A DNA stretch of 39,422 bases from Hyphomicrobiales bacterium (lineage in GTDB: Bacteria > Pseudomonadota > Alphaproteobacteria > Rhizobiales > Aestuariivirgaceae), in contig JAMOMM010000261.1 of the NCBI GenBank assembly GCA_027067085.1, forward strand, positions 1 through 39,422, read 5' to 3'. Numbering within the stretch: position 1 is the stretch's first letter; each line of letters starts with the position of its first letter. Below the pieces are notes generated by a model. The model saw only the letters and a list, made by a program, of their open reading frames with translations, did no database searches and was not told the origin of the DNA. Of this stretch, positions 1 to 30,668 are shown in pieces. Made by a program: the position numbers and the translations under genes.

Positions 1-180
1 AATGCTTCAAATACGTCATTGCGTTCGTCTTGAGAATAGCTGGCCAAAAAGTTTTGACAGTAATTATTACAAGCTCTCCAATGTCAAAACATCCAATAGG
101 CGGGTCAAGTCCAACAAGAAATTTTTGGGTGCACTCTCAGAGACAGACATACTTTTCACAGGTGCCACAACCACTTTCTC

Positions 181-641
181 TTAGCTTAAGACAACACGCT
201 GTCGGGCACGCACTGAAACAGTGCCAATATTGAATACAGCGACTTCGTTTTCCACCAGTATCACCGTCCGCAAACCCAATACCTTCATACTCAAGAAAGC
301 TTATCTCAAAATCAACATTCCATAGGCCAACATTACTTAACCCTACCACCAAATTTGCACCGTCAAAAGCTTTTGCCTTTAACCTTGCACGATCAGCACC
401 AATTTTTGGTGACCCGCTGACCAAGACTTCCATCAAGTGAACACCATATAACTGGATATCTACATTGTCAGAAACTTTCTTAGCTGGTGGCAGCAAAAAA
501 TGTTTCATACCGCCAACACACACAACAGGACCATTTAAACAAACAGCAACATATGACCCCAATACAATACTGGATTTTTCGAAACAAAGCCTCTCCTTGC
601 AAAATATGAATTATGTTTTTTGACTGGAGGGGTGTACTCAT
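181..641 (-). pseudogene. cheD: cheD-like chemoreceptor glutamine deamidase, disrupted by two frameshifts
   Basis: Consecutive CheD-like segments lie in three frames. First is MSTPLQSKNIIHILQGEALF (ATG at 641). Second is SSIVLGSYVAVCLNGPVVCVGGMKHFLLP..YGVHLMEVL..GADRARLKAKAFDGAN..GGKRSRCIQYW (ORF-track 137..562). Third is TVSVRARQRVVLS, ending at TAA 181-183. The first shift is near the T5 run at 575-579. The conserved LGSC cysteine reads Tyr (GSY). Confidence 0.75.
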
Positions 642-1875: not shown

Positions 1876-2540
1876 TTACCTGAGTCAGCTTGATAACCTT
1901 GTTTAGTATATCGCACTCAACTACGCTTGCGATTCGACATGATGCTAACTCCTCAATAGCATCCATTGAATCAATAGTTTTCTCTACATTTCTGACACTG
2001 TGTGAGCTCGCAAGAACAATCGATGTAATTCCCTTTGCGACATCTTCAGACGCAAGCTTTTATTCTGCTAGCATTGTTGCGATCTGCGCCATATTATCTG
2101 TAGTTTTTTCTATTTTTCACGGATACCACTCATTCGTTCGCTGGCTTTTCAATAGCATACTTGCCAGTTACAACTGAGTTAGTTGTACTGTCCATTTCCA
2201 ACAAAACACCCTTACTTTCTTTTTGTAAACTTTTTATTATGCCATCAATTTCGTCGGTGGAGCTTTCCGTCTACTCGATTAAACTTTTAATTCCACCTGC
2301 TAGTACCGAAAACCCTTCACCAGCATCTCCTGCTCAGGCTGCTTCAATATTTGCATTTAACACAAGCAATTTCATCCTGTAAGCAATTGATTTAATCACA
2401 TCTGCCGTTTCGGCAACTTCAATGGACAAACGCGCCATCTGACTCAAATCAATATTTGAGTCTTGAGCGAGTTTATTGTTCAGCTAACGCAACTCCCCAG
2501 ACACATCACACTCACCCAAGCATCCAGCCTCACACTAGAT
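1876..2540 (-). pseudogene. methyl-accepting chemotaxis protein remnant (cytoplasmic signalling domain only)
   Basis: The highly conserved MCP hairpin region reads IAYRMKLLVLNANIEAA*AGDAGEGFSVLAGGIKSLIE*TESSTDEIDGII (TGA at 2334-2336, TAG at 2271-2273). Further stops and a frameshift follow before IEKTTDNMAQIATMLAE*KLASEDVAKGITSIV..DAIEELAS. No transmembrane or ligand-binding part was detected. Boundaries are approximate. Confidence 0.75.
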
Positions 2541-5522: not shown

Positions 5523-6279
5523 TTAGCAACCAATCTCGAAAACCTTGCATGAACAATATCAACATTTCATCGGAAACAATAAATAACAACATCAAACCAC
5601 CTAGCAATACAAATGGCAGCGAAATAAAATAAATTGGAATCTGAGGGGTCAGCTTATTGGCCAACCCGATAGCCAGGTTAACCAAAACGGCGTATATAAA
5701 AAAGGGAGCACTAGCTTGGATCGATACAAACATCGCTTTTGATAAATTTCTCACAATATCATTTAACTGCATTTTCATTTGCGGCCATTGGCCCACTGGG
5801 GAAACATCATACGAACCTAGCAATGCATAGATTATCTCTAAGTGTAAGTCGGTAAAAAAAACCAATGCTGTCGCGGTAACTGTAATTAGCGAAACCAAGG
5901 CTGGAACTGCTTCTTGACCTTCAATTGGTGTTCCTGGCATCGCCCCCATACCAATGAACATTGCTATTGTCGATGCAGAAAACTGGATCGAAAGCATAAA
6001 CATTCTTCCCATCAAGCCTATTAACAATCCCTTTGAAATCTCACTTACAATCAACAAGGTTATTCGGCTTGATCCTGATTTCAAAAGGCTCTCTTCAACG
6101 GTATCAAGCAATAATGGAGTTAGTGACAAGGTAATTGAAATAGCTATATAAAGTCGTATTCGCATCGGAACTCGAGAAGTCGAGAACCCTGGAATCACCA
6201 TTAGGCAAGATCCGATTCGGCAAAAAAATAGGAATACTAAAATGACGATACTTGGCAAATCAAACATCATGCCTGTCAC
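5515..6279 (-). CDS. fliR: flagellar export apparatus protein FliR
   Basis: A polytopic membrane protein of 254 aa ([36 protein letters not shown]), immediately downstream of flhA with a 4-nt overlap. Confidence 0.9.
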
Positions 6280-8366
6280 GATATTTCCCCAAGATTGACA
6301 ATTTCTACGCCCCGTGCAATTTCAAGCTGGGAGAGCACAGGCAGTGTTGGGAAAAGCCGTTCTGTTATCATACGCACAAACGGCCTCGCGTCTGGTGCAG
6401 TTACCAATACAAACTGCTCGCCCGCATCCATCAACTTTCGAATCGATGTTGAAGCATCCGTCGAAAACTCTTCAATCATTGCAGGATCAATACTGAACTC
6501 AACAGCATCGCTTACATCATCTCGTTTTATACTTTCGTGAAAAGCAAGGTCCCAACGATTACCTAAGCGCAAAACATTTATTGCACGTCCTTGGGTCAGG
6601 TCACCACAAATTTGACGCGAAATCCTCACTCGCACATGCTCTACAATTTGTTCAGGACGCTGAGCATGAGGTGCAATTTCAGCAATCGCTTCAAGAATCA
6701 AATCTAGATTTCGAATTGATACTCTTTCGCTCAGCAATAATTTGAACACTGCTTGAATACCCGAATAAGTAATTTGCGCAGGGCAAATTTCATCAATCAA
6801 ACGTTGATACTCAGGGTCAAGTCGATCAAGAATTTTTCGCATATCTTTATAAGACAAAAGCGTCGCTAGGTTATTACGAATAGTTTCGCTTAAATGCGTC
6901 AACATTACAGACATGGCGTCAACAGGCTGGAAGCCTGCCACTTTTGCTTCGTTTTCAAACACTTTTGAAATCCAAAGCGCCTTCATGCCAAATGCAGGCT
7001 CTCTAGCTTCTTCACCAGGGATATCTGGTGCTTGGCGTTCACCTATAATTAAAAGCAGTTCATCTGCTCTAAGTTTTTGAGAAGCGGCAACAGTTCCATG
7101 CATCTTTATCTGATAACTTTTGGGATCCGTATCAAAACTGTCAGAGAGTTTTATCTCAGGAAATACAAATCCAAAGCTTGTGGCAAATTTGCGCCTCATT
7201 TTAGCGACCCGATTAGTCAATTCACCTTGCGAAGCATTGAATGTCAATGCTAGTTGCTTACCAAGACACAGTTCAATGCTGGGCATTTTAAGAAGCTCTT
7301 GTATATTGTTCTGCGCTTCGAGGGTTTTTTCCTGAGTTTCTTGGTGGGCCTTTTCAAGTAATTTCTCATGGTTTTTCTCTTTGTTTGAGGAAATTGTATA
7401 TGCAGAAAAACTTAAAATCCCAGCTATTGTTGCAAAGGGGAAAAATGGCATCCCAGGCACAACGGCCATTAACAACATCAACAAGGCGCCAACATTTAAT
7501 GCCTTTGGATAATTACTCAACTGCCCCAAAACAACATGCTCGGCAGAACCTCGATTTCCCCCTTTTGAAACCAGAAGGCCTGCTGCAAGTGATACGATCA
7601 ACGCAGGTATTTGCGATACCAGCCCATCACCAACTGATAGTCGCGTAAAAACATCTGCGGCTTCACTAATCGGCATGTCATATCGCGTTACACCAATAAT
7701 AATGCCACCAAAAATATTAATTGCAGTGATGATTAATCCAGCAACGGCATCTCCTCGTACAAATTTTGATGCACCATCCATCGCACCAAAAAAAGAACTT
7801 TCTTCTTCCAATTCTTTACGACGAGATTGCGCTTGTTTTTCATCTATCAAGCCCGCTGATAAATCAGCGTCAATTGCCATCTGTTTTCCTGGAATCGAAT
7901 CAAGCGTAAAGCGTGCGCCAACTTCAGCAATTCGCGTTGCGCCCTTGGTAATTACCATAAAGTTAATAATGACCAAAATTGCAAAAACTATTAATCCAAT
8001 TACAAAATCACCACTCATAACAAACGTGGAAAACCCGCCAATAACGTTTCCTGCAGCTGTATACCCCTCATTTCCGTTCGCTAAGATCAACCGTGTCGAA
8101 GCAATATTTAAGGATAGACGCAACATGGTCGCAATCAGTAAAATTGTTGGAAACGCCGAAAAATCCAATGGCTTCTCAATCCACAAAGAAACCATTAAAA
8201 TCAATACTGAAAGCGCAATTGACAATGCTAATCCCAAGTCCAGTAATGTGGCAGGGACGGGCAAAAATAAGATCATCAATATGGCAAGAATACCAATCGC
8301 AAATCCTGTATCTCGATAGTGGGACGTTTGGCCCATGCCAGCGGCGCCAAAAGGTTCTTCTGACAT
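6276..8366 (-). CDS. flhA: flagellar export apparatus protein FlhA
   Basis: A 696-aa ORF with hallmark motifs [34 protein letters not shown] and [19 protein letters not shown]. Confidence 0.97.
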
Positions 8367-9077: not shown

Positions 9078-9533
9078 TTAACTCCTTTGCATTGTTTTAA
9101 GTTCTTCAATTGGCTCATCGTTCTGTGCTTGCTCACGTTGCATCGCCTTCAACATCATGTCCTCGATAACAAATAGTTTTCGTAGAGTTTTAAGTGCTTC
9201 AAAGTTACGAGCAGAATTAACTAAATTTTTCACCTCTATTAAACCCTCTGCAAGGTCATCGCTTGGGCACATCGCGACAATTTGAGTGTGCATTTGATAG
9301 AAGTTTTGACGCGTTTCAAAACCCGCTTCTGGGTCAACGAGTAACTTTTGTAAATTAGTGTACATTTTTTTAAGTGGTGTTGTGGCTTGACTCGGCTTCA
9401 ACATATGGCTTTCAAGAAGAAAAGTGACGGTGTTGAGAAATTCCAATGAGGTCTTTCGATCAACGCGAACCATCGCTCCATTTATGAAAATAGTTTCACC
9501 AGCCCTCAATGATATTTGAATAGTATGCTTCAT
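9078..9533 (-). CDS. flbT: flagellin synthesis regulator FlbT
   Basis: The N-terminus is IQISLRAGETIFINGAMVRVDRKTSLEFLNTVTFLLESHMLKPSQATTPLKKMY, typical of FlbT. It is adjacent to flaF. Confidence 0.85.
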   Translation of the reverse strand: MKHTIQISLRAGETIFINGAMVRVDRKTSLEFLNTVTFLLESHMLKPSQATTPLKKMYTNLQKLLVDPEAGFETRQNFYQMHTQIVAMCPSDDLAEGLIEVKNLVNSARNFEALKTLRKLFVIEDMMLKAMQREQAQNDEPIEELKTMQRS

Positions 9534-9877
9534 GATAAGCCCTGTTTCAACATCTTTGAAACCTCTATCAAATTTTTAAAATCTTTACTTTGGCCCTGGC
9601 GTAAACGCTCTATTTCTTGCAGCACCCAAATTCCCACTGAAATGATATCTGCCTTTAAAATATCATCGAAACCATTTTCTTTTTTTGTCAGGTCCTCGAT
9701 AAAGAACACCCAAAGCCGGTGGACAAAAAACTGCGCCTCAATAGCTTGCATCGACCCAATGCCATGTTCTTGGGCAGCGTATAAAAGTTCTAATGCTTTA
9801 TCAAAAGCTACAGATTCATTTTCGCGCTCAGCTTGACTGCCGTCATTTCTGATTTCTTGGTAACTACTTTGGTACAT
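9530..9877 (-). CDS. flaF: flagellin synthesis regulator FlaF
   Basis: A 115-aa protein with FFVHRLWVFFIEDL..ADIISVGIWVLQEIERL..IEVSKMLKQGL. It has a 4-nt overlap with flbT. Confidence 0.85.
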   Translation of the reverse strand: MYQSSYQEIRNDGSQAERENESVAFDKALELLYAAQEHGIGSMQAIEAQFFVHRLWVFFIEDLTKKENGFDDILKADIISVGIWVLQEIERLRQGQSKDFKNLIEVSKMLKQGLS

Positions 9878-13806: not shown

Positions 13807-14487
13807 CTAATTGATTGAAGGTACGTTTAAGCAATATCCTAAGAAACGTTTTGCATCCACAGGATCATAGCCAAGCACTTTACGTAGTTTTTTGCGTAGT
13901 TTGGATACATGGCTTTCAACAACACTTTCATCGACTTCGGTTTCAAACAAACCATAAACCACATTGAATAACTGAGCTTTGGTGATACGTTTTCCCTTGT
14001 TACGGACAAGATATTCAAGAATTCTATACTCACGCCGTGGCAACTGAAACGCGGCACCATTTATAACTGGTGGACGCCCATCGAGAAATATTTTGATTTC
14101 GCCAGCATTAAACTCTTTGGCAAGTTCTTGTTGTCTATTTATTATTGCTCCCATCCGAGCAATTATCTCTTTGACATGGACTGGCTTACGCACCACGTCA
14201 TCAACACCAACTGAAAATAATTGTAAAATATTTTGCAAACCTGAGTTTTCACTCATCACAATAACTGGCGCGCTAGAACGTTTTTTTATTGTTTCAGGCA
14301 GTGCTAAGTCTTGCGAGTCCCCCGAGATCAAAAAGGCCTCAACAGCTGATAAGTCATTGGGTGAAACTGACCAGATCCATTCATTAAATTCCAACGGGTC
14401 AAACCCAGCCGAAGAGATACCTTCACGGTTGAAACCCATTTTATACCCATCAATAACTAGTGTGCGCTCGTCCACAATGACAATCAT
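13807..14487 (-). CDS. ftcR: OmpR-family flagellar master regulator FtcR/Rem-type
   Basis: A receiver domain (MIVIVDERTLVIDGY..VVRKPVHVKEIIARM) plus a winged-helix domain (REYRILEYLVRNKGKRITKAQLF..VESHVSKLRKKL). Its position between the fliK-side operon and flgE matches Brucella ftcR and Sinorhizobium rem. Confidence 0.85.
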   Translation of the reverse strand: MIVIVDERTLVIDGYKMGFNREGISSAGFDPLEFNEWIWSVSPNDLSAVEAFLISGDSQDLALPETIKKRSSAPVIVMSENSGLQNILQLFSVGVDDVVRKPVHVKEIIARMGAIINRQQELAKEFNAGEIKIFLDGRPPVINGAAFQLPRREYRILEYLVRNKGKRITKAQLFNVVYGLFETEVDESVVESHVSKLRKKLRKVLGYDPVDAKRFLGYCLNVPSIN

Positions 14488-14749: not shown

Positions 14750-15322
14750 TTACATACAAAAAAATCTTGATTCTTTTGTCCATTTTCCAAAGCCACTCGC
14801 GACTAAATTTCTAATAACAGTGCAAACATATTTTTTCTGCGCAACCACGTTTTTAGGACCTGCGTGATAACGCGCTGCTGCGAGTGTCCAAGAGCCTTCT
14901 CGTTTAAAGAGTTTTTGTAAAAAACGCGCCGCATAGTCAACGTTTTTGCGCGGATCCAACATCTCCTCAACCGAATTAAATTGTTTGGAATGATAATAAT
15001 AATTTATCTGCATACAGCCTAGGTCGATCATCTTAATACCACGGGCTCTAGCATCTCTAAACACGTTTAATGCTTTGGTTTTATTTGAGGGATAAAAGCC
15101 CTTGCCAGCCACATTAAGGGCGTAAGGGTGCATTGATTTAGCATTTCCTGTCTCTGTCAAGCCAATGGCATAAAGGAACCCCAAAGGTACCCCATGGGTT
15201 TTGGCACTGGCTGCTATATGAGGTTCGCATTTTTGACGAAATGTAGCAGAAAAACTGGAGCTACTAAAGATACTTAGCTCCATCCAAACTAACGCGAGCA
15301 GAATGCAAAACATCCTCATCAT
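14750..15322 (-). CDS. flagellar-cluster lytic transglycosylase (SLT domain), secreted
   Basis: It has a signal peptide (MMRMFCILLALVWMELSIFSSSSFSA) and an SLT-like core (LYAIGLTETGN..HPYALNVAGKGF..DLGCMQINYYYH..YAARFL..AARYHAG). The 246-aa ORF-track form overlaps fliK heavily. I chose the start at 15322, but 15319 and 15313 are also possible. Confidence 0.8.
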   Translation of the reverse strand: MMRMFCILLALVWMELSIFSSSSFSATFRQKCEPHIAASAKTHGVPLGFLYAIGLTETGNAKSMHPYALNVAGKGFYPSNKTKALNVFRDARARGIKMIDLGCMQINYYYHSKQFNSVEEMLDPRKNVDYAARFLQKLFKREGSWTLAAARYHAGPKNVVAQKKYVCTVIRNLVASGFGKWTKESRFFCM

Positions 15323-16694
15323 TACTCGTTTGTTGGAGGTCCTGATCATAATTCTTACTTTCGTTTTTAGCAGCCCTTTGGTTCTTACTTTGCCCAGGGT
15401 TTTGATCTGTACTTTGTCCTTGCTTAGGCATTTCTCTATCAAAAGTTTTTGATGCTCCACCATCTCCAATATCCTTACTAGTCGTACCAAGTTCAGAGTC
15501 TTTTATACTGACAGAAATATCATCTACGATTAATCCTGCCGCTTGAATTTGAAGCTTTAAGTTTGCAACATCAGCATTAATTCGACCAGCAATGTTGTGG
15601 TTTTCAGCAATGATGGAGACCACGAATTTTTGACCTACCAATGACATTCTCACCGAAATTGTACCCAGATTCTCTGGCTTGAGTTGAATCGTTAAAAATT
15701 TTACTGATTTAGATACAGTCTTTGTTTCCACGTTTTCAAACTGCGAAGTCAATAACGTTTTCGGCTTCAAACTATGGAGTTCTTGTGACACCAAAATACC
15801 TATTTTTTCGGGTATTTGACTTATAGCGTTTGGAGAAACTTGCCCAGTTTGTCCAACAGATAAAATTTTGACTAGTGGCTGTGATTTATCTTTTTTTTGC
15901 GGCTCGAAGATTTCGACTTTCTTGCTGACTTCTTGCATTTCTCTGATATTAATTGGCATCGTCTTATTTTTTGGAAGTAAATTCGACTTATCAACTTCAC
16001 CAACATGTCGATCCATACCTAACTCACGATGAGATAAACTAATGTTTCTTATGTCTAGTTTTGCGAATCGATTACGTTCATCAACTTGCGTCATCCGATC
16101 TGGAATTTCAGTTCCATTTTTTCGGGGTTTATTGGATAGAGTTTTAGATTGAAAACTCTCATTTGGCCCGAAAGATGTTGGCATCTTAGCTTTGTGCGTT
16201 AGAGCTAAAGAAATTTGTTTCAAATCTACATCATATTTTTTATCTATATTTGAAATACTAGTTACCTTAACAAACGGTGCTTCTACAGCACTTTGTTTTT
16301 GAACAGCATGATTAGTCTCGCCAACCACCTGGTTCTTAAGACGTGCCTCACTCATGTGATTTCGTAGGTCTTTAATTACCAGACTTTGATGTTCCATTCT
16401 AAAGCCCTTTGGTTCGCGATGCGCTCTCTTGTTTTCACCAAATGCCAAGTCAGTTTCAGATGCTTTCAATGCTCTTTCATTAATTGGTTTCTTTAAATCT
16501 AATTTGTCTACATCGCCCCGCTCAATAACTTTTGTCACATCATGAGACAGTTCAGTTTTATCCTTTTCTTCTATTAACTGAGAAAACGTTTTGTCATCCT
16601 TCGGGCCATCATCACGCACTTCTTTTAAACGAAAACCATCGGAACGCCTGTTCGCTTTAGCAGCAATAGGAATTTGAAACTCAATTTGGGCCAT
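15264..16694 (-). CDS. fliK: hook-length control protein FliK
   Basis: A low-complexity N-terminal part plus a C-terminal Flg_hook-type domain (LTIQLKPENLGTISVRMSLVGQKFVVSIIAENHNIAGRINADVANLKLQIQAAG). Confidence 0.8.
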   Translation of the reverse strand: MAQIEFQIPIAAKANRRSDGFRLKEVRDDGPKDDKTFSQLIEEKDKTELSHDVTKVIERGDVDKLDLKKPINERALKASETDLAFGENKRAHREPKGFRMEHQSLVIKDLRNHMSEARLKNQVVGETNHAVQKQSAVEAPFVKVTSISNIDKKYDVDLKQISLALTHKAKMPTSFGPNESFQSKTLSNKPRKNGTEIPDRMTQVDERNRFAKLDIRNISLSHRELGMDRHVGEVDKSNLLPKNKTMPINIREMQEVSKKVEIFEPQKKDKSQPLVKILSVGQTGQVSPNAISQIPEKIGILVSQELHSLKPKTLLTSQFENVETKTVSKSVKFLTIQLKPENLGTISVRMSLVGQKFVVSIIAENHNIAGRINADVANLKLQIQAAGLIVDDISVSIKDSELGTTSKDIGDGGASKTFDREMPKQGQSTDQNPGQSKNQRAAKNESKNYDQDLQQTSNDEDVLHSARVSLDGAKYL

Positions 16695-21594: not shown

Positions 21595-22518
21595 TTATCT
21601 GAACAAGGACAAGACGTTCTGACTTGATGAGTTTGCAATGCTTAGCGCTTGCACACCCAACTGTTGTTGAACTTGTAACGCTTTCAAACGAGTTGATTCA
21701 GCGGTCATATCAGCATCAACCAATTCACCTACTCCACGCGAAATTGCATCCATAAGATTGGAAACAAAATCTTTTTGCATATCAACACGTTTCTTAGTTG
21801 CACCAAGGTTACTCGCCGCTGTCGTCATTGACTGATGTGCGCCATCAACTGTAGAAATAATTTCATCCAAGTCTGCAAGATCAGCTACGGAATCTGTGTA
21901 AGCAGAAACATCTACTGTCGCTACAGAATACGTTACTGCTCCATTGGTGGTTGTACTTGTAGTGTCAAGTATACCAGATCCGCCAGCATCAGCATCATAG
22001 AGTTTAACGTTGGCGGTGTTTACATCAATCGTACCGACCGTAACGCCCGTTGCAGAACGCGTGAATGATGCAACTATTGACTTACTGGCATTGTAACCAA
22101 CAGCACCAGAATCAACTGAAAGCCAGTTTTCACCAGAAAATGATGCAGAACTAGCAATACTGACCAACTGATTTTGCAACTCATCAACTTCAGCTTGAAT
22201 TGCAACACGATCAACACCCGGTTCACGTGCAGCCACAATTTTTGCTTTAATTTCGTCGACAACTTCTAAGCTAGACTCCATCGCAGTATAGGCCACATCA
22301 ACTGTTGCTGCACCCAAGCCAAGTGCATCGGTTACTGTGCCTAAAGCTTTGTTATCAGAGCGCATTGTTGTCGCAATTGACCAATAGGCTGCGCTGTCAG
22401 ATGCTGTAGCTACTTTATAGCCCGTAGCAATACGGTTTTGAGTTGTTTCTAAGTTTGAATTTGTTTGATTAAGCGTTTGTAGCGCCGTCATCGCTGATGC
22501 ATTTGTCATAATTGACAT
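21595..22518 (-). CDS. fla: flagellin (rhizobial type), single copy in the window
   Basis: The N-terminus is MTNASAMTALQTLNQTNSNLETTQNRIATGYKVATASDSAAYWSIATTMRSDNKALG. It also has SFSGENWL, and the C-terminus is ESTRLKALQVQQQLGVQALSIANSSSQNVLSLFR. Confidence 0.96.
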   Translation of the reverse strand: MSIMTNASAMTALQTLNQTNSNLETTQNRIATGYKVATASDSAAYWSIATTMRSDNKALGTVTDALGLGAATVDVAYTAMESSLEVVDEIKAKIVAAREPGVDRVAIQAEVDELQNQLVSIASSASFSGENWLSVDSGAVGYNASKSIVASFTRSATGVTVGTIDVNTANVKLYDADAGGSGILDTTSTTTNGAVTYSVATVDVSAYTDSVADLADLDEIISTVDGAHQSMTTAASNLGATKKRVDMQKDFVSNLMDAISRGVGELVDADMTAESTRLKALQVQQQLGVQALSIANSSSQNVLSLFR

Positions 22519-22569
22519 AGTTTCAAGTCCTTTACGTTACTTACTAGTTTATACTATTTTTGTAAGAAC

Positions 22570-22609
22570 ATATCGGACTTGCACCGACACAGTGAAACGG
22601 CATCATGCC
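22570..22609 (-). promoter_or_regulatory. bipartite motif upstream of flagellin (candidate promoter/operator)
   Basis: The minus strand reads GGCATGATGCC-gtttcactgtg-TCGGT-gcaag-TCCGATAT and ends about 50 nt upstream of the flagellin ATG. The last block resembles a CGA-type -10 element such as GCCGATAA. The three blocks are identical to the copy at 28925-28964. Confidence 0.6.
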
Positions 22610-22688
22610 ATTGGGCTAGAGTTAAAAAGCGCCCAATCCACTATACTCGGACACATTATTCAATAGGTGTTAAAATTTAGTTAAAAAT

Positions 22689-23450
22689 CTAAAAGAACGA
22701 CCTAACCAACCCTCCAACCAACAAATTCCAACCATCAATCAATATGAAGAACAATATTTTGAATGGTAATGAGATCACTGTCGGCGGCAACATCATCATT
22801 CCCATAGACATGGTAATAGTTGCCACAACCAAATCTATAACCAAAAAAGGCAAAACGATTAAGAAACCAATTTCAAAACCTCTCCGTAATTCTGAGATCA
22901 TGAAAGCTGGTATTAAGATTCTCAAGTCAATCTTGTCAGACTTGCCATTCCTTGCCTTTTCATCCTTGTTTTCCCTTCCAAAACTCTTACTAGCTAAGTC
23001 TTGAAACATATGAATATCTTTGGCCCGCACTTGATCCAACATAAAGCGGCGAAATGGCTGTACCACATTTTCGTAGGCTTGGGCTTGTGATATCTTATCT
23101 TCCATCATTGGTTTGATGCCATTTTGCCAAGCCTTATCTGTCGTTGGCCCCATTATGAAAAATGTCATAAACAATGCTAGAGAAATCAGAATTAGATTTG
23201 CTGGCGTTGTCTGCAAACCCATCCCAGAACGCAAAAATGACAATGCCACAATGATACGCGTAAAACTTGTTACCATAATCAAAAGCCCAGGTGCTACAGA
23301 CAGCACCGTTAGCAAAACAACCATTTGGATAATTTTTCCCGTTGCTGAATTTTCAACAGGTGGTAAAAAGTCCCCAAAGGTTACATCTTGTCCCATAGCT
23401 GGCATCGCTAAAAACATAAGTGCCGAAAGAGCTAGAATGATATATTTCAT
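22689..23450 (-). CDS. fliP: flagellar export apparatus protein FliP
   Basis: Signal peptide plus the motifs LLTVLSVAPGLLIMVTSFTRIIVALSFLRSGMGLQTTPAN and FMISELRRGFEIGFLIVLPFLVIDLVVA. Confidence 0.96.
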   Translation of the reverse strand: MKYIILALSALMFLAMPAMGQDVTFGDFLPPVENSATGKIIQMVVLLTVLSVAPGLLIMVTSFTRIIVALSFLRSGMGLQTTPANLILISLALFMTFFIMGPTTDKAWQNGIKPMMEDKISQAQAYENVVQPFRRFMLDQVRAKDIHMFQDLASKSFGRENKDEKARNGKSDKIDLRILIPAFMISELRRGFEIGFLIVLPFLVIDLVVATITMSMGMMMLPPTVISLPFKILFFILIDGWNLLVGGLVRSFF

Positions 23451-28351: not shown

Positions 28352-28747
28352 TTAACCTTTCACACTCATCAATAACATACGATGAAATGACTTCACTATA
28401 TTTGCGTTGAGCGCATACGATCGCGCAACTTCACTACCCTTTATTAATTCAGCTTCAATAGAAACAGAGTTCCCTGAGTGTGATATTTCAATGCTTTGAG
28501 TTGTACCTTTCGAAGCATGCGAACGATCAGTAATTCCTTGCGCATTAAGATGCTTTGAATGAGTTCGACTTAAGCCACCAGAAAAACCTGATGCTTGAGA
28601 TTTTAAAATGCTTGAAAATGGTTCAATTTCACGCGATTGATATCCAGTAGTACTTGCATTTGCAATGTTACTTGCAATAACCCCTTGCTTCTCTGTAAGC
28701 CACTGGGCCTTTTGCGAAGCTATCGAAAAGAGTTGTACGCTGCTCAT
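28352..28747 (-). CDS. flgB: proximal rod protein FlgB
   Basis: Contains the motif [23 protein letters not shown]. It is the first gene of the flgB-to-fliP operon. Confidence 0.9.
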
Positions 28748-28924: not shown

Positions 28925-28964
28925 GGCATGATGCCAAAAAGCCACATCGGTTCAAATCCGATAT
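28925..28964 (+). promoter_or_regulatory. bipartite flagellin-type motif (copy B) oriented toward the small-ORF/diguanylate-cyclase unit
   Basis: The sequence is GGCATGATGCC-aaaaagccaca-TCGGT-tcaaa-TCCGATAT. All 24 block positions are identical to the flagellin copy, and the spacer has the same length but an unrelated sequence. It lies about 150 nt upstream of ATG 29113 and about 180 nt upstream of the divergent flgB. Confidence 0.55.
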
Positions 28965-29112: not shown

Positions 29113-29376
29113 ATGTCCTTTTTTACTATACTTGCGATATCATCAGTTGCCTTACCAACCCAATTACCTCAGAGCAATGAATTCGGGTTTTTATTTCAAA
29201 TAGACTCTTTTAGCCCACTGGTCGTCGAGTATGTGGTTTCTTGTTCACGGTTAACACCAAAGGGAAAAGGCTACGGAATTATATCGTACTCGAGTGTCGA
29301 TCGTTTTTACTGCACACCCTCTCAACACTGTTTTAAAAAACTGAGGATAGCACACAGGGAAACTTGTGGTTTCTAA
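29113..29376 (+). CDS. small hypothetical Cys-containing protein (87 aa)
   Basis: ATG at 29113 has an AGAGGAAG Shine-Dalgarno 4 nt upstream. The protein starts MSFFTILAISSVALPTQLPQSNE.., a weakly signal-like N-terminus, and has 4 Cys. It ends 41 nt before the GGDEF gene. The ORF-track form (29065) starts upstream at a non-ATG codon. Confidence 0.4.
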   Translation: MSFFTILAISSVALPTQLPQSNEFGFLFQIDSFSPLVVEYVVSCSRLTPKGKGYGIISYSSVDRFYCTPSQHCFKKLRIAHRETCGF

Positions 29377-29417: not shown

Positions 29418-30479
29418 ATGCTACAAAAAAACTATCAAATATCCATTCCAGATATCGACAATACAGATAACATCGATTCCGAGTATGCCCACTCTGTTAA
29501 GGTGGCAAATGATGTTTTTAAATTGGTAGAAACTCACACGACACCGCCAGTCCCACAAACGTACGACCTTTGGTACCAATATGTACAAGGAAATGACAAA
29601 GATCTCAATCAGCAAATTGATGCCATCATAGATCGTGGAAAACACCTAAGTCAGCAAGATATTGAACTTATTCACCAGAGTTTTGCTGATAACAATCACC
29701 AACAAATAAATGAAATTGGTGAAGATCTGGAAGAGGCGTGCCTTCAACTAATGAGCATGCTGACATCGCATATAAATCTCAATGACGGCTATGAAAACTC
29801 CCTGATAGAGGCCAACGCTGAACTGAACGCCAACCCCACTCCCGAGAATTTAAAGCTCGTGGTCAAAGCATTAATTTCTGAAAATGAGAAAGTTACAAAA
29901 AACTCTTCGAAACTCAAACAAGAACTTTCAACAGCAGTAAGTTCATTGGAGGAGCTAAACGAGGACCTTAGAAAGTCAAGAAAAAACGAACTAACAGACC
30001 CATTGACACTTATAGGAAATCGTAAAAAGTTTAACATATCACTTGCCCAAAACCTTCAACTTGCCCAAGAAAAATGTATTCATTTTTCTGTTATCATTGC
30101 TGATTTAGACAACTTTAAAATCGTTAATGACAATTTTGGACACCTCGTCGGCGATGCAATTTTGAAATTATTTGCAAAAATAATGATTAAGAATGTCAAA
30201 GGTCGAGATATCGTTACGCGTTATGGCGGAGAGGAGTTTGCGCTCATACTTCCCAGCACAGACCTGAACGGAGCATTCCTTGTAGCCGAACAAATCCGCC
30301 TTGACCTTTCTTCTCAAAACCTTCAAGTCACAGAAAATAAAAACCCAGTTGGAGTTGTCACTGCATCGTTTGGCATTAGCCAGTACCGCAAGGGCGACAC
30401 ATCTCAATCCATAGTCGCGAGAGCCGACAAAAGGTTATATGAGGCAAAGAGGGGTGGACGGAATCAAGTAAAAAAATAG
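29418..30479 (+). CDS. GGDEF-domain diguanylate cyclase with an N-terminal coiled-coil region
   Basis: Contains ELTDPLTLIGNRKKF, FSVIIADLDNFKIVNDNFGHLVGDAIL, RYGGEEFALILP (intact GGEEF) and ADKRLYEAKRGGRNQV. The I-site position reads KGRD rather than RxxD. No TM segments are present. Confidence 0.92.
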   Translation: MLQKNYQISIPDIDNTDNIDSEYAHSVKVANDVFKLVETHTTPPVPQTYDLWYQYVQGNDKDLNQQIDAIIDRGKHLSQQDIELIHQSFADNNHQQINEIGEDLEEACLQLMSMLTSHINLNDGYENSLIEANAELNANPTPENLKLVVKALISENEKVTKNSSKLKQELSTAVSSLEELNEDLRKSRKNELTDPLTLIGNRKKFNISLAQNLQLAQEKCIHFSVIIADLDNFKIVNDNFGHLVGDAILKLFAKIMIKNVKGRDIVTRYGGEEFALILPSTDLNGAFLVAEQIRLDLSSQNLQVTENKNPVGVVTASFGISQYRKGDTSQSIVARADKRLYEAKRGGRNQVKK

Positions 30480-30560: not shown

Positions 30561-30618
30561 AAACTATTTAGGCAAAATTGACAAGCAACACTCTCTCTGT
30601 CCAAACTGTTGTTTGTTT

Positions 30619-30668
30619 AAACGGTCAGGTTTGATGTAAAATCAAATCTGACCGTTTGTTTTGTAATT
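30619..30668 (+). terminator. rho-independent terminator of the GGDEF unit
   Basis: AAACGGTCAGGTTTGAT-gtaaa-ATCAAATCTGACCGTTT forms a 17-bp stem with one G-U pair, followed by GTTTTGTAATT. Confidence 0.7.

Follow-up and report, generated by a model that had tools for sequence, protein, structure and literature searches.

A structured RNA leader, probably cis-regulatory, at the start of late motility mRNAs in Hyphomicrobiales

The DNA analysed here, a stretch of 39,422 nucleotides (nt) from a Hyphomicrobiales bacterium (contig JAMOMM010000261.1; the whole stretch is called the window below), carries a flagellar gene cluster, and its host is an AT-rich member of the order. The original prediction for this DNA had described a 40-nt motif of three conserved blocks, found before the flagellin gene and before a diguanylate cyclase unit, and had read it as a DNA promoter or operator. 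We found that the motif covers only the 3' half of a structured RNA of 63 to 85 nt (about 75 nt) at the start of late motility mRNAs, and we are highly confident that this RNA is a transcribed, structured cis-regulatory leader.

The three copies of the motif read as had been quoted and lay at the positions given by the original prediction:

22609 to 22570, minus strand: flagellin copy, GGCATGATGCC-gtttcactgtg-TCGGT-gcaag-TCCGATAT
28925 to 28964, plus strand: copy B, with the central part aaaaagccaca-TCGGT-tcaaa
2644 to 2682, plus strand: copy A, a degenerate third copy with three substitutions in the blocks and a deletion

The flagellin copy and copy B were identical at all 24 block positions, while their 11-nt spacers shared 1 of 11 bases. 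When the whole window was searched for the block pattern with up to three mismatches exactly these two copies were retrieved; 100 dinucleotide-preserving shuffles yielded no match. This confirmed that the three-copy motif is real and not due to chance. A fourth occurrence of GGCATGATGCG at 1138 was rejected, as it consists of block 1 without blocks 2 and 3 and is located inside a decayed transposase frame.

In every copy the conserved unit reached 25 to 40 nt further in the 5' direction than the motif as originally drawn. The flanks of the matches from a genome scan (see below) showed that the presumed 11-nt spacer is complementary to a segment of 6 to 9 nt located 25 to 40 nt upstream, with a hairpin in between. 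The resulting helix, P1, could not have been seen from three copies. The order of the parts is the 5' strand of P1, hairpin P2, hairpin P3, the 3' strand of P1, hairpin P4 and a conserved AU. P1 is the outer helix and closes a three-way junction around the variable P2 and the near-invariant P3. The elements of the window are:

22568 to 22646, minus strand: complete flagellin-leader element (P1-P2-P3-P1'-P4-AU); 57.3 bits and E 2e-15 with covariance model R1, in agreement with the minimum free energy (MFE) fold
22637 to 22644, minus strand: 5' strand of P1, AUAGUGGA, the best complement to the spacer, pairing with 22589 to 22596
22611 to 22636, minus strand: hairpin P2, UUGGGC, a 14-nt loop and GCCCAA; length and sequence differ among lineages
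22599 to 22609, minus strand: hairpin P3, GGC-AUGAU-GCC (block 1), the most conserved part
22589 to 22596, minus strand: 3' strand of P1, UUCACUGU, the core of the spacer
22572 to 22588, minus strand: hairpin P4, a 5-bp stem with the 7-nt loop UGCAAGU (blocks 2 and 3), resembling a tRNA T-arm
22571 to 22570, minus strand: conserved AU after P4
28883 to 28966, plus strand: complete element of copy B, located where flgB and an operon of a small open reading frame (ORF) and a GGDEF gene diverge; R1 55.3 bits
2614 to 2684, plus strand: complete, slightly degraded element of copy A; R1 49.4 bits

P1 is formed by AUAGUGGA and UUCACUGU in the flagellin copy and by UGUGGCU/AGCCACA in copy B. Its strands read CAGCGGA/UCCGCUG in Microvirga, UGACGGG/UCCGUCA in Phyllobacterium and CAUGACGAA/UUCGUCAUG in metagenome-assembled genomes (MAGs). 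The fixed length of the spacer had been taken as a sign of protein contacts; instead, the spacer is the 3' strand of P1 and changes along with its upstream partner. In copy A, P4 has an A-G mismatch and a 6-nt loop and P1 has a 1x1 mismatch. With filters switched off the covariance model found no copy beyond these three in the 39 kb, and the class II operon starts were without the element.

The fold was obtained in several ways. Independent MFE folds of about 55 sequences gave the same architecture. In a plain MAFFT alignment all eight pairs of P1 showed double changes, 88% of the cells were paired compared with at most 54% when the partners were slid against each other, and covariation at the observed level was reached in 0 of 500 shuffles. 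Among 82 covariance-model matches P1, P2 and P4 covaried, with compensated changes in 8/8, 5/5 and 2/5 pairs, respectively; the covarying pairs of P4 exchanged GC for AU and, in 17 sequences, UA for CG. Strong covariation spanned Microvirga, Phyllobacterium, Hyphomicrobium, Sinorhizobium, Methylorubrum and uncultured relatives. Furthermore, the helices of the 82 matches contained G-U pairs. Because these are A-C mismatches on the opposite strand, the fold is strand-specific.

The GGC/GCC stem of P3 was invariant in 79 covariance-model matches, with variation at loop positions 3 and 5. Block 1 had been described as a palindrome, and so it is in the two best window copies; as a conserved feature the palindrome failed, since 28 of 80 homologues broke the full 11 nt of GGCAT-N-ATGCC and retained GGC...GCC alone. 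A divergent element of only 10 bits precedes the p42e flagellin gene of Rhizobium etli CFN42 (locus L063, 2385 to 2461). There P3 reads AGC-AUGAG-GCU, a compensatory change in its otherwise invariant first pair. In copies that were found without the search pattern, P4 had changes in its loop and outer pairs but kept its CGG/CCG core, and GGCAUGAUGCC and the AU after P4 were retained. In Sinorhizobium the P4 loop measured 5 and 13 nt, so that its length is not conserved there.

The genome scan used the pattern GGCATNANGCC-N10-12-TNGGT-N4-5-TCCGAYAT on one genome per species from 185,579 species. It returned 61 genome stretches, compared with about 3 expected by chance according to our own estimate. 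All matches that were classified to the level of order belonged to the Hyphomicrobiales, the remainder being labelled only as Alphaproteobacteria or Proteobacteria; Microvirga, Phyllobacterium, Hyphomicrobium, Thermopetrobacter, Rhizobiaceae and other MAGs were represented. Of 62 copies, 45 were located 35 to 53 nt (median 36) before the start codon of a flagellin gene, all in sense orientation. Other copies preceded proteins of GAF-PAS-GGDEF-EAL architecture (7 to 9), a CHASE4-GGDEF-EAL protein (1), a methyl-accepting chemoreceptor (3, in Hyphomicrobium; a HAMP protein at locus L005), a response regulator (1) and a PepSY protein (1). Thus the proposal that flagellin and an enzyme of cyclic di-GMP (c-di-GMP) metabolism share one cis control element is borne out by copies before flagellins, GGDEF-EAL proteins and chemoreceptors of other genera. 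Likewise, the element is directed to genes and is not a dispersed repeat: all copies are in sense orientation and precede genes of a single functional class at a fixed distance, and the 39 kb contain three.

A pattern-independent test was done with flagellin loci that were picked by protein similarity alone from a plasmid and chromid collection and then scanned with the model. Matches directly preceded the flagellin genes of Phyllobacterium sp. T1293 (65.9 bits) and Methylorubrum extorquens CM4 (37.8 and 24.4 bits, a tandem pair) and three of the four fla genes of Sinorhizobium sp. M103 (29.5, 19.2 and 14.8 bits). In a Sinorhizobium flagellar and chemotaxis region a 44-bit copy stood before the first gene of the che operon. 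Flagellins and chemotaxis genes form class III of the S. meliloti hierarchy. The model scan found no match at flagellin loci of Paracoccus, Sulfitobacter, Cereibacter, Erythrobacter and Azospirillum; in the set chosen by protein similarity Rhodobacterales, Sphingomonadales and Azospirillum were thus devoid of matches.

Tandem arrangements occurred in Methylobacteriaceae. In Microvirga a second, divergent copy was located about 6 nt upstream of most main copies (loci L002, L003, L010, L013, L016, L017, L028, L032, L035, L036, L038, L044, L045, L059 and L060), and the same was seen in Methylorubrum (L070, 2308 to 2455); the copies of the window are single. The upstream copy is a conserved variant of its own with P1 AUGG/CCAU and P4 CCGG-UNNNAGC-CCGG followed by AUG. 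Secondary flagellin-like genes on the chromids of Rhizobium sp. CB3171 and S. fredii (L064, about 5900 to 5990; L072, about 7900 to 7990) are preceded by a TTAAC box and a GGCAUCAGGCC-like hairpin with no clear P1 or P4, which may be a reduced form of the leader.

Copy B is followed by two genes:

29113 to 29376, plus strand: small conserved protein, hydrophobic at the N-terminus and with conserved cysteines, 87 amino acids from an ATG with a good ribosome-binding site
29418 to 30479, plus strand: GGDEF diguanylate cyclase with a GGEEF motif (Pfam GGDEF, E 7e-41)

No Pfam family matched the small protein. It is 39% identical (E 2e-12) to the product of an 81-amino-acid ORF at the same place in a related MAG, and the GGDEF protein has 59% identity to its orthologue there. 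This MAG is syntenic with the window and carries the element before both of its flagellin genes; its orthologue of copy B precedes an operon of the small ORF, the GGDEF gene and a gene for a methyl-accepting chemotaxis protein (MCP). The arrangement of copy B, small ORF and GGDEF gene is therefore kept in a relative. Copy A, after which no intact gene follows, is probably an orphan. In its P1 (GCAGCCG) it agrees with the Hyphomicrobium copies that are linked to chemoreceptors.

If the element acts as an RNA it has to lie within the transcript. Transcription start sites of S. meliloti 1021 have been mapped, and CtrA-type boxes are listed at flaC, flaD and mcpE (Schlueter et al. 2013, PMC3616915). 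The published box strings recurred with identical spacing in the Sinorhizobium locus we analysed, and the start sites transferred in this way preceded P1 by 6 nt in flaD, 3 nt in flaC and 2 nt in mcpE. The starts near 22560 (minus), 28972 (plus) and 2690 (plus) that had been predicted downstream of block 3 do not agree with this, as the S. meliloti starts map upstream of the whole element. For the flagellin gene of the window the following were found:

22684 to 22655, minus strand: probable promoter, a sigma-70-like candidate TTAACT-18-AATAAT from a promoter scan
22669 to 22684, minus strand: TTAA-N7-TTAAC (CtrA-type) box overlapping the candidate promoter

The start predicted from these, at about 22646 to 22648, would be 1 to 3 nt before P1, with a geometry of box, start and P1 as in S. 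meliloti flaC and flaD. Judged by this promoter geometry the window element should be part of the transcript. With start sites 1 to 6 nt before P1 the element is the extreme 5' end of the mRNA. CtrA-type boxes were seen 22 to 23 nt before the mapped or predicted starts of flagellin leaders in the window and at L062 (7337 to 7351 and 8833 to 8847) and L076 (15836 to 15850). Like the CtrA-box flagellar promoters of Alphaproteobacteria, the window and S. meliloti flaC, flaD and mcpE have a TTAA-N7-TTAAC box upstream of the element; it is a separate DNA element and distinct from the originally described motif. One published "CtrA motif" of flaD (GAAGAAGCGGTTAAC) is the 3' strand of P2 and lies inside the RNA element.

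On the other side the element is followed by the ribosome-binding site:

22519 to 22569, minus strand: rest of the flagellin leader, in which 22562 to 22569 form a hairpin with about 22533 to 22541 in the MFE fold of the whole leader
22528 to 22533, minus strand: ribosome-binding site AAAGGA, adjoining this hairpin

Moreover, GGACUUG (22524 to 22530) at the Shine-Dalgarno (SD) sequence is complementary to CAAGUCC (22575 to 22581) of the loop and 3' strand of P4, which offers an alternative fold of the window leader. Directly 3' of P4, a C/U-rich stretch and the ribosome-binding site form a duplex, which is GUCCCC/GGGGC in Phyllobacterium, UUCCCUGAA/UUCAAGGAA in Microvirga and CCCUUU/AAAGGG in Sinorhizobium. 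In 31 of 42 flagellin leaders the duplex between the P4-adjacent region and the SD window was stronger than duplexes with shuffled SD windows (mean z -1.27), a count that is indicative only. Two other functions of the region were rejected. An upstream ORF starting from the AUG after P4 (AUG UUC UUA CAA AAA UAG in the window) was dropped, since many homologues have AUU at this position. P4 as an intrinsic terminator was weakly flagged in copy B; yet its stem has 5 bp and a T-run is not conserved.

The analysis showed the fold, how it is conserved, which genes it accompanies and where it lies with respect to mapped starts; the following model is based on this. Late (class III) mRNAs, i.e. those of flagellins, chemoreceptor and che operons and c-di-GMP turnover enzymes, begin with the element, and a trans-acting factor would recognise the invariant surface of P3, P4 and AU. 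The likeliest factor would be FlbT/FlaF or a complex containing them, and the window encodes these candidate partners:

9530 to 9877, minus strand: flaF (Pfam FlaF, E 1e-26)
9078 to 9533, minus strand: flbT (Pfam FlbT, E 8e-31)

Binding of the factor would shift the neighbouring hairpin of anti-SD and SD, perhaps also mRNA stability. As a result, all mRNAs that carry the leader might have their translation switched jointly, depending on how far the flagellum has been assembled. FlbT has been proposed to bind flagellin 5' untranslated regions (UTRs) in Caulobacter and Brucella with the RNA target being undefined (PMC4347634), as is also stated in a 2015 review, and Caulobacter FlbT was reported to affect mRNA stability. 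We give the statement as a whole, a leader RNA together with a translational switch of the FlbT/FlaF type, an even chance of being correct. The translational mechanism by FlbT/FlaF, taken by itself, has an even chance at best; here we infer both which factor acts and in which direction it controls expression.

Several points weigh against this interpretation. In the first 61 loci it was the search pattern that made P4, and in part P3 and AU, invariant. The 42 flagellin leaders of the SD test are related, so that its counts are not independent. The start sites, mapped in S. meliloti 1021, were carried over to a different Sinorhizobium strain with the help of the published box strings, and those of the window are drawn from them by analogy. 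Between copy B and its first gene there are 146 nt; because of this gap sequestration of the SD next to P4 cannot act there in the same way. Lastly, Rhodobacterales (Cereibacter) and Azospirillum have flaF-flbT, which adjoins flagellin at loci L069 and L071, and here the model detects no element. The distribution of the element is therefore narrower than that of FlbT. At the sensitivity of the model its absence from these loci could reflect divergence or a different target.

The best of the alternatives is that the element is the aptamer of a new class of riboswitch for a small molecule of the decision between motile and sessile life, c-di-GMP or a related one, for which the anti-SD hairpin would serve as the expression platform. 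The architecture resembles an aptamer in that covarying stems frame invariant nucleotides of loops and junctions, the anti-SD follows directly after the element, and tandem copies about 6 nt apart as in Microvirga and Methylorubrum are seen in several riboswitch classes. Flagellin, chemoreceptors and GGDEF/EAL enzymes are the classic regulon of known c-di-GMP riboswitches, which the gene set of the element resembles. However, no known riboswitch model matched, and conservation is highest in a small hairpin whose stem bases are invariant, as is typical of protein sites, too. In addition, the P4 loop varies in length in Sinorhizobium, and the dedicated FlbT/FlaF system already accounts for post-transcriptional control of flagellin in the order. 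We consider such an aptamer unlikely. The fuller claim of an undescribed riboswitch class of the Hyphomicrobiales, which would gate translation of flagellin, chemoreceptors and c-di-GMP enzymes through a second messenger or metabolite, is slightly less likely again.

Alternatively, the leader might be a ligand-independent stabiliser at the 5' terminus, whose stable fold would shield abundant late mRNAs from decay that starts at the 5' end. The mapped starts only 2 to 6 nt before P1 are consistent with this, flagellin mRNAs must be abundant, and an effect on mRNA stability is on record for Caulobacter FlbT. A generic hairpin, on the other hand, needs neither the invariant GGC-AUNAN-GCC nor a T-arm-like P4 or an AU conserved across families, and the tandem copies and the restriction to one functional set of genes would be left unexplained. 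This explanation appears improbable.

The bipartite DNA promoter or operator of the original prediction, bound by a sigma factor or by FtcR/Rem and driving flagellin and the diguanylate cyclase, has become very improbable. Compensatory changes and G-U pairs act at the level of RNA, the palindrome of block 1 is kept in the two best window copies but broken in the homologues mentioned above, and the separate TTAA-N7-TTAAC promoter and the mapped starts lie upstream. The element is close to the transcription start, and a DNA-level role as a downstream operator is conceivable. Block 3 indeed resembles the -10 of sigma-28 promoters (GCCGATAA), but the likeness is incidental, as CCGAYAU is the 3' strand of P4 plus the conserved AU. 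A sigma-28 (FliA) promoter was rejected because the equivalent of its -35 TAAA, expected about 15 nt from the -10, falls into the freely varying 3' strand of P1 with a spacing that is not conserved, and because in the orthologous S. meliloti copies transcription starts 2 to 6 nt upstream of the element and not after the -10. Similarly, a sigma-54 promoter (TGGCAC-N5-TTGC) is not present. Hardly credible, finally, is an origin from tRNA fragments, a relic of an integration site or a repeat of the repetitive extragenic palindrome or miniature inverted-repeat element type (REP/MITE-like): P4 of copy B (AUCGG-UUCAAAU-CCGAU) is T-arm-like and copy A is adjacent to transposase remnants, but ARAGORN found 0 tRNA or tmRNA genes at or near the sites, Rfam gave no tRNA match in the window, P1 to P3 have no counterpart in tRNA, and the copies are only three and biased in orientation, position and gene class.

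The remaining features of the window concern the flagellar cluster and the surroundings of copy A:

21595 to 22518, minus strand: flagellin gene governed by the first element (Pfam Flagellin_N and Flagellin_C)
22689 to 23450, minus strand: fliP
28352 to 28747, minus strand: flgB
13807 to 14487, minus strand: OmpR-type response regulator in the flagellar cluster, receiver domain below the Pfam cut-off
137 to 562, minus strand: CheD-like fragment
about 998 to 1400: frameshifted transposase reading frame
1436 to 1762: fragment of a DDE transposase
2199 to 2426, minus strand: fragment of an MCP signalling domain, on the strand opposite to copy A

The OmpR-type regulator is probably the master regulator of Rem/FtcR type that had been named in the original prediction. 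The closest relatives of the flagellin are from uncultured Hyphomicrobiales, Thermopetrobacter and Aquibium; given these relatives, an origin from Bartonella and with it the small RNA families of Bartonella were dropped. The region from 137 to 2600 is a decayed chemotaxis region, and the host seems to be losing chemotaxis genes while keeping the flagellar ones. Two observations stand apart. An ORF with an SLT domain (14750 to 15490) and a FliK-like ORF (15264 to 16694), both on the minus strand, overlap by about 230 nt as listed; the former, whose listed start is TTG, probably begins further downstream. At 30618 to 30658, between the GGDEF gene and the convergent fliI gene, 40 nt gave weak Rfam matches on both strands (Wolbachia sRNA mel02, E 0.26 and 1.4), a symmetry that points to an inverted repeat and possibly to a terminator acting in both directions.

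We know of no FliA/FlgM checkpoint in the Rhizobiales. For the restriction of class III expression in this group and for recognition by FlbT/FlaF the leader would provide a concrete cis-element with base pairs that can be tested. As it is shared by the mRNAs of flagellin, che/MCP and GGDEF/EAL genes, the late regulon becomes definable by sequence. The shared leader also suggests that one post-transcriptional switch serves the filament and the c-di-GMP enzymes alike. Sinorhizobium, Rhizobium and Methylorubrum, which are genetically tractable models, carry the element.

The structured flagellin leader appears to be undescribed. No Rfam 15 family matched the sites in the window and 23 related loci at gathering or permissive thresholds, and no description turned up in literature searches that covered the motif string and RNA leaders of flagellin genes in Rhizobiales. 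Its nearest counterpart is flg-Rhizobiales (RF01736; Weinberg et al. 2010), which like the element is a candidate cis-regulatory RNA with three hairpins in 5' UTRs of flagellar genes of Rhizobiales. Model scans and reading of the seed alignment ruled out identity of the two. RF01736 did not match at E<=10 in 22450 to 22750, at E<=5 in the window, at the gathering score in 18 loci and at E<=0.1 in five further loci. Its seed (Bradyrhizobium, Rhodopseudomonas, Oligotropha) has a sigma-54 promoter upstream and loops of the CUUGGGAGAGC and UUGGGAGAG type, which are absent from the window copies. Unlike these copies it precedes a gene whose product starts with MQNALL and which we take to be a rod protein.

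With the c-di-GMP-I and -II riboswitches (GEMM) the element shares the classes of downstream genes, the tandem arrangement and the location in 5' UTRs. The likeness is in the regulon only, as their models did not match and the fold is different. P4 resembles the tRNA T-arm in its 5-bp stem closed by G-C and its 7-nt loop U-(U/G)-N-R-A-N-(U/C); in contrast to the T-arm it is outside any cloverleaf, and the loop length differs in Sinorhizobium. The FlbT/FlaF-controlled leaders of Caulobacter crescentus fljK and Brucella melitensis fliC also belong to flagellin mRNAs of Alphaproteobacteria under post-transcriptional control. Compared with these, the element is restricted to the Hyphomicrobiales and extends beyond flagellin to chemoreceptor and GGDEF/EAL genes.

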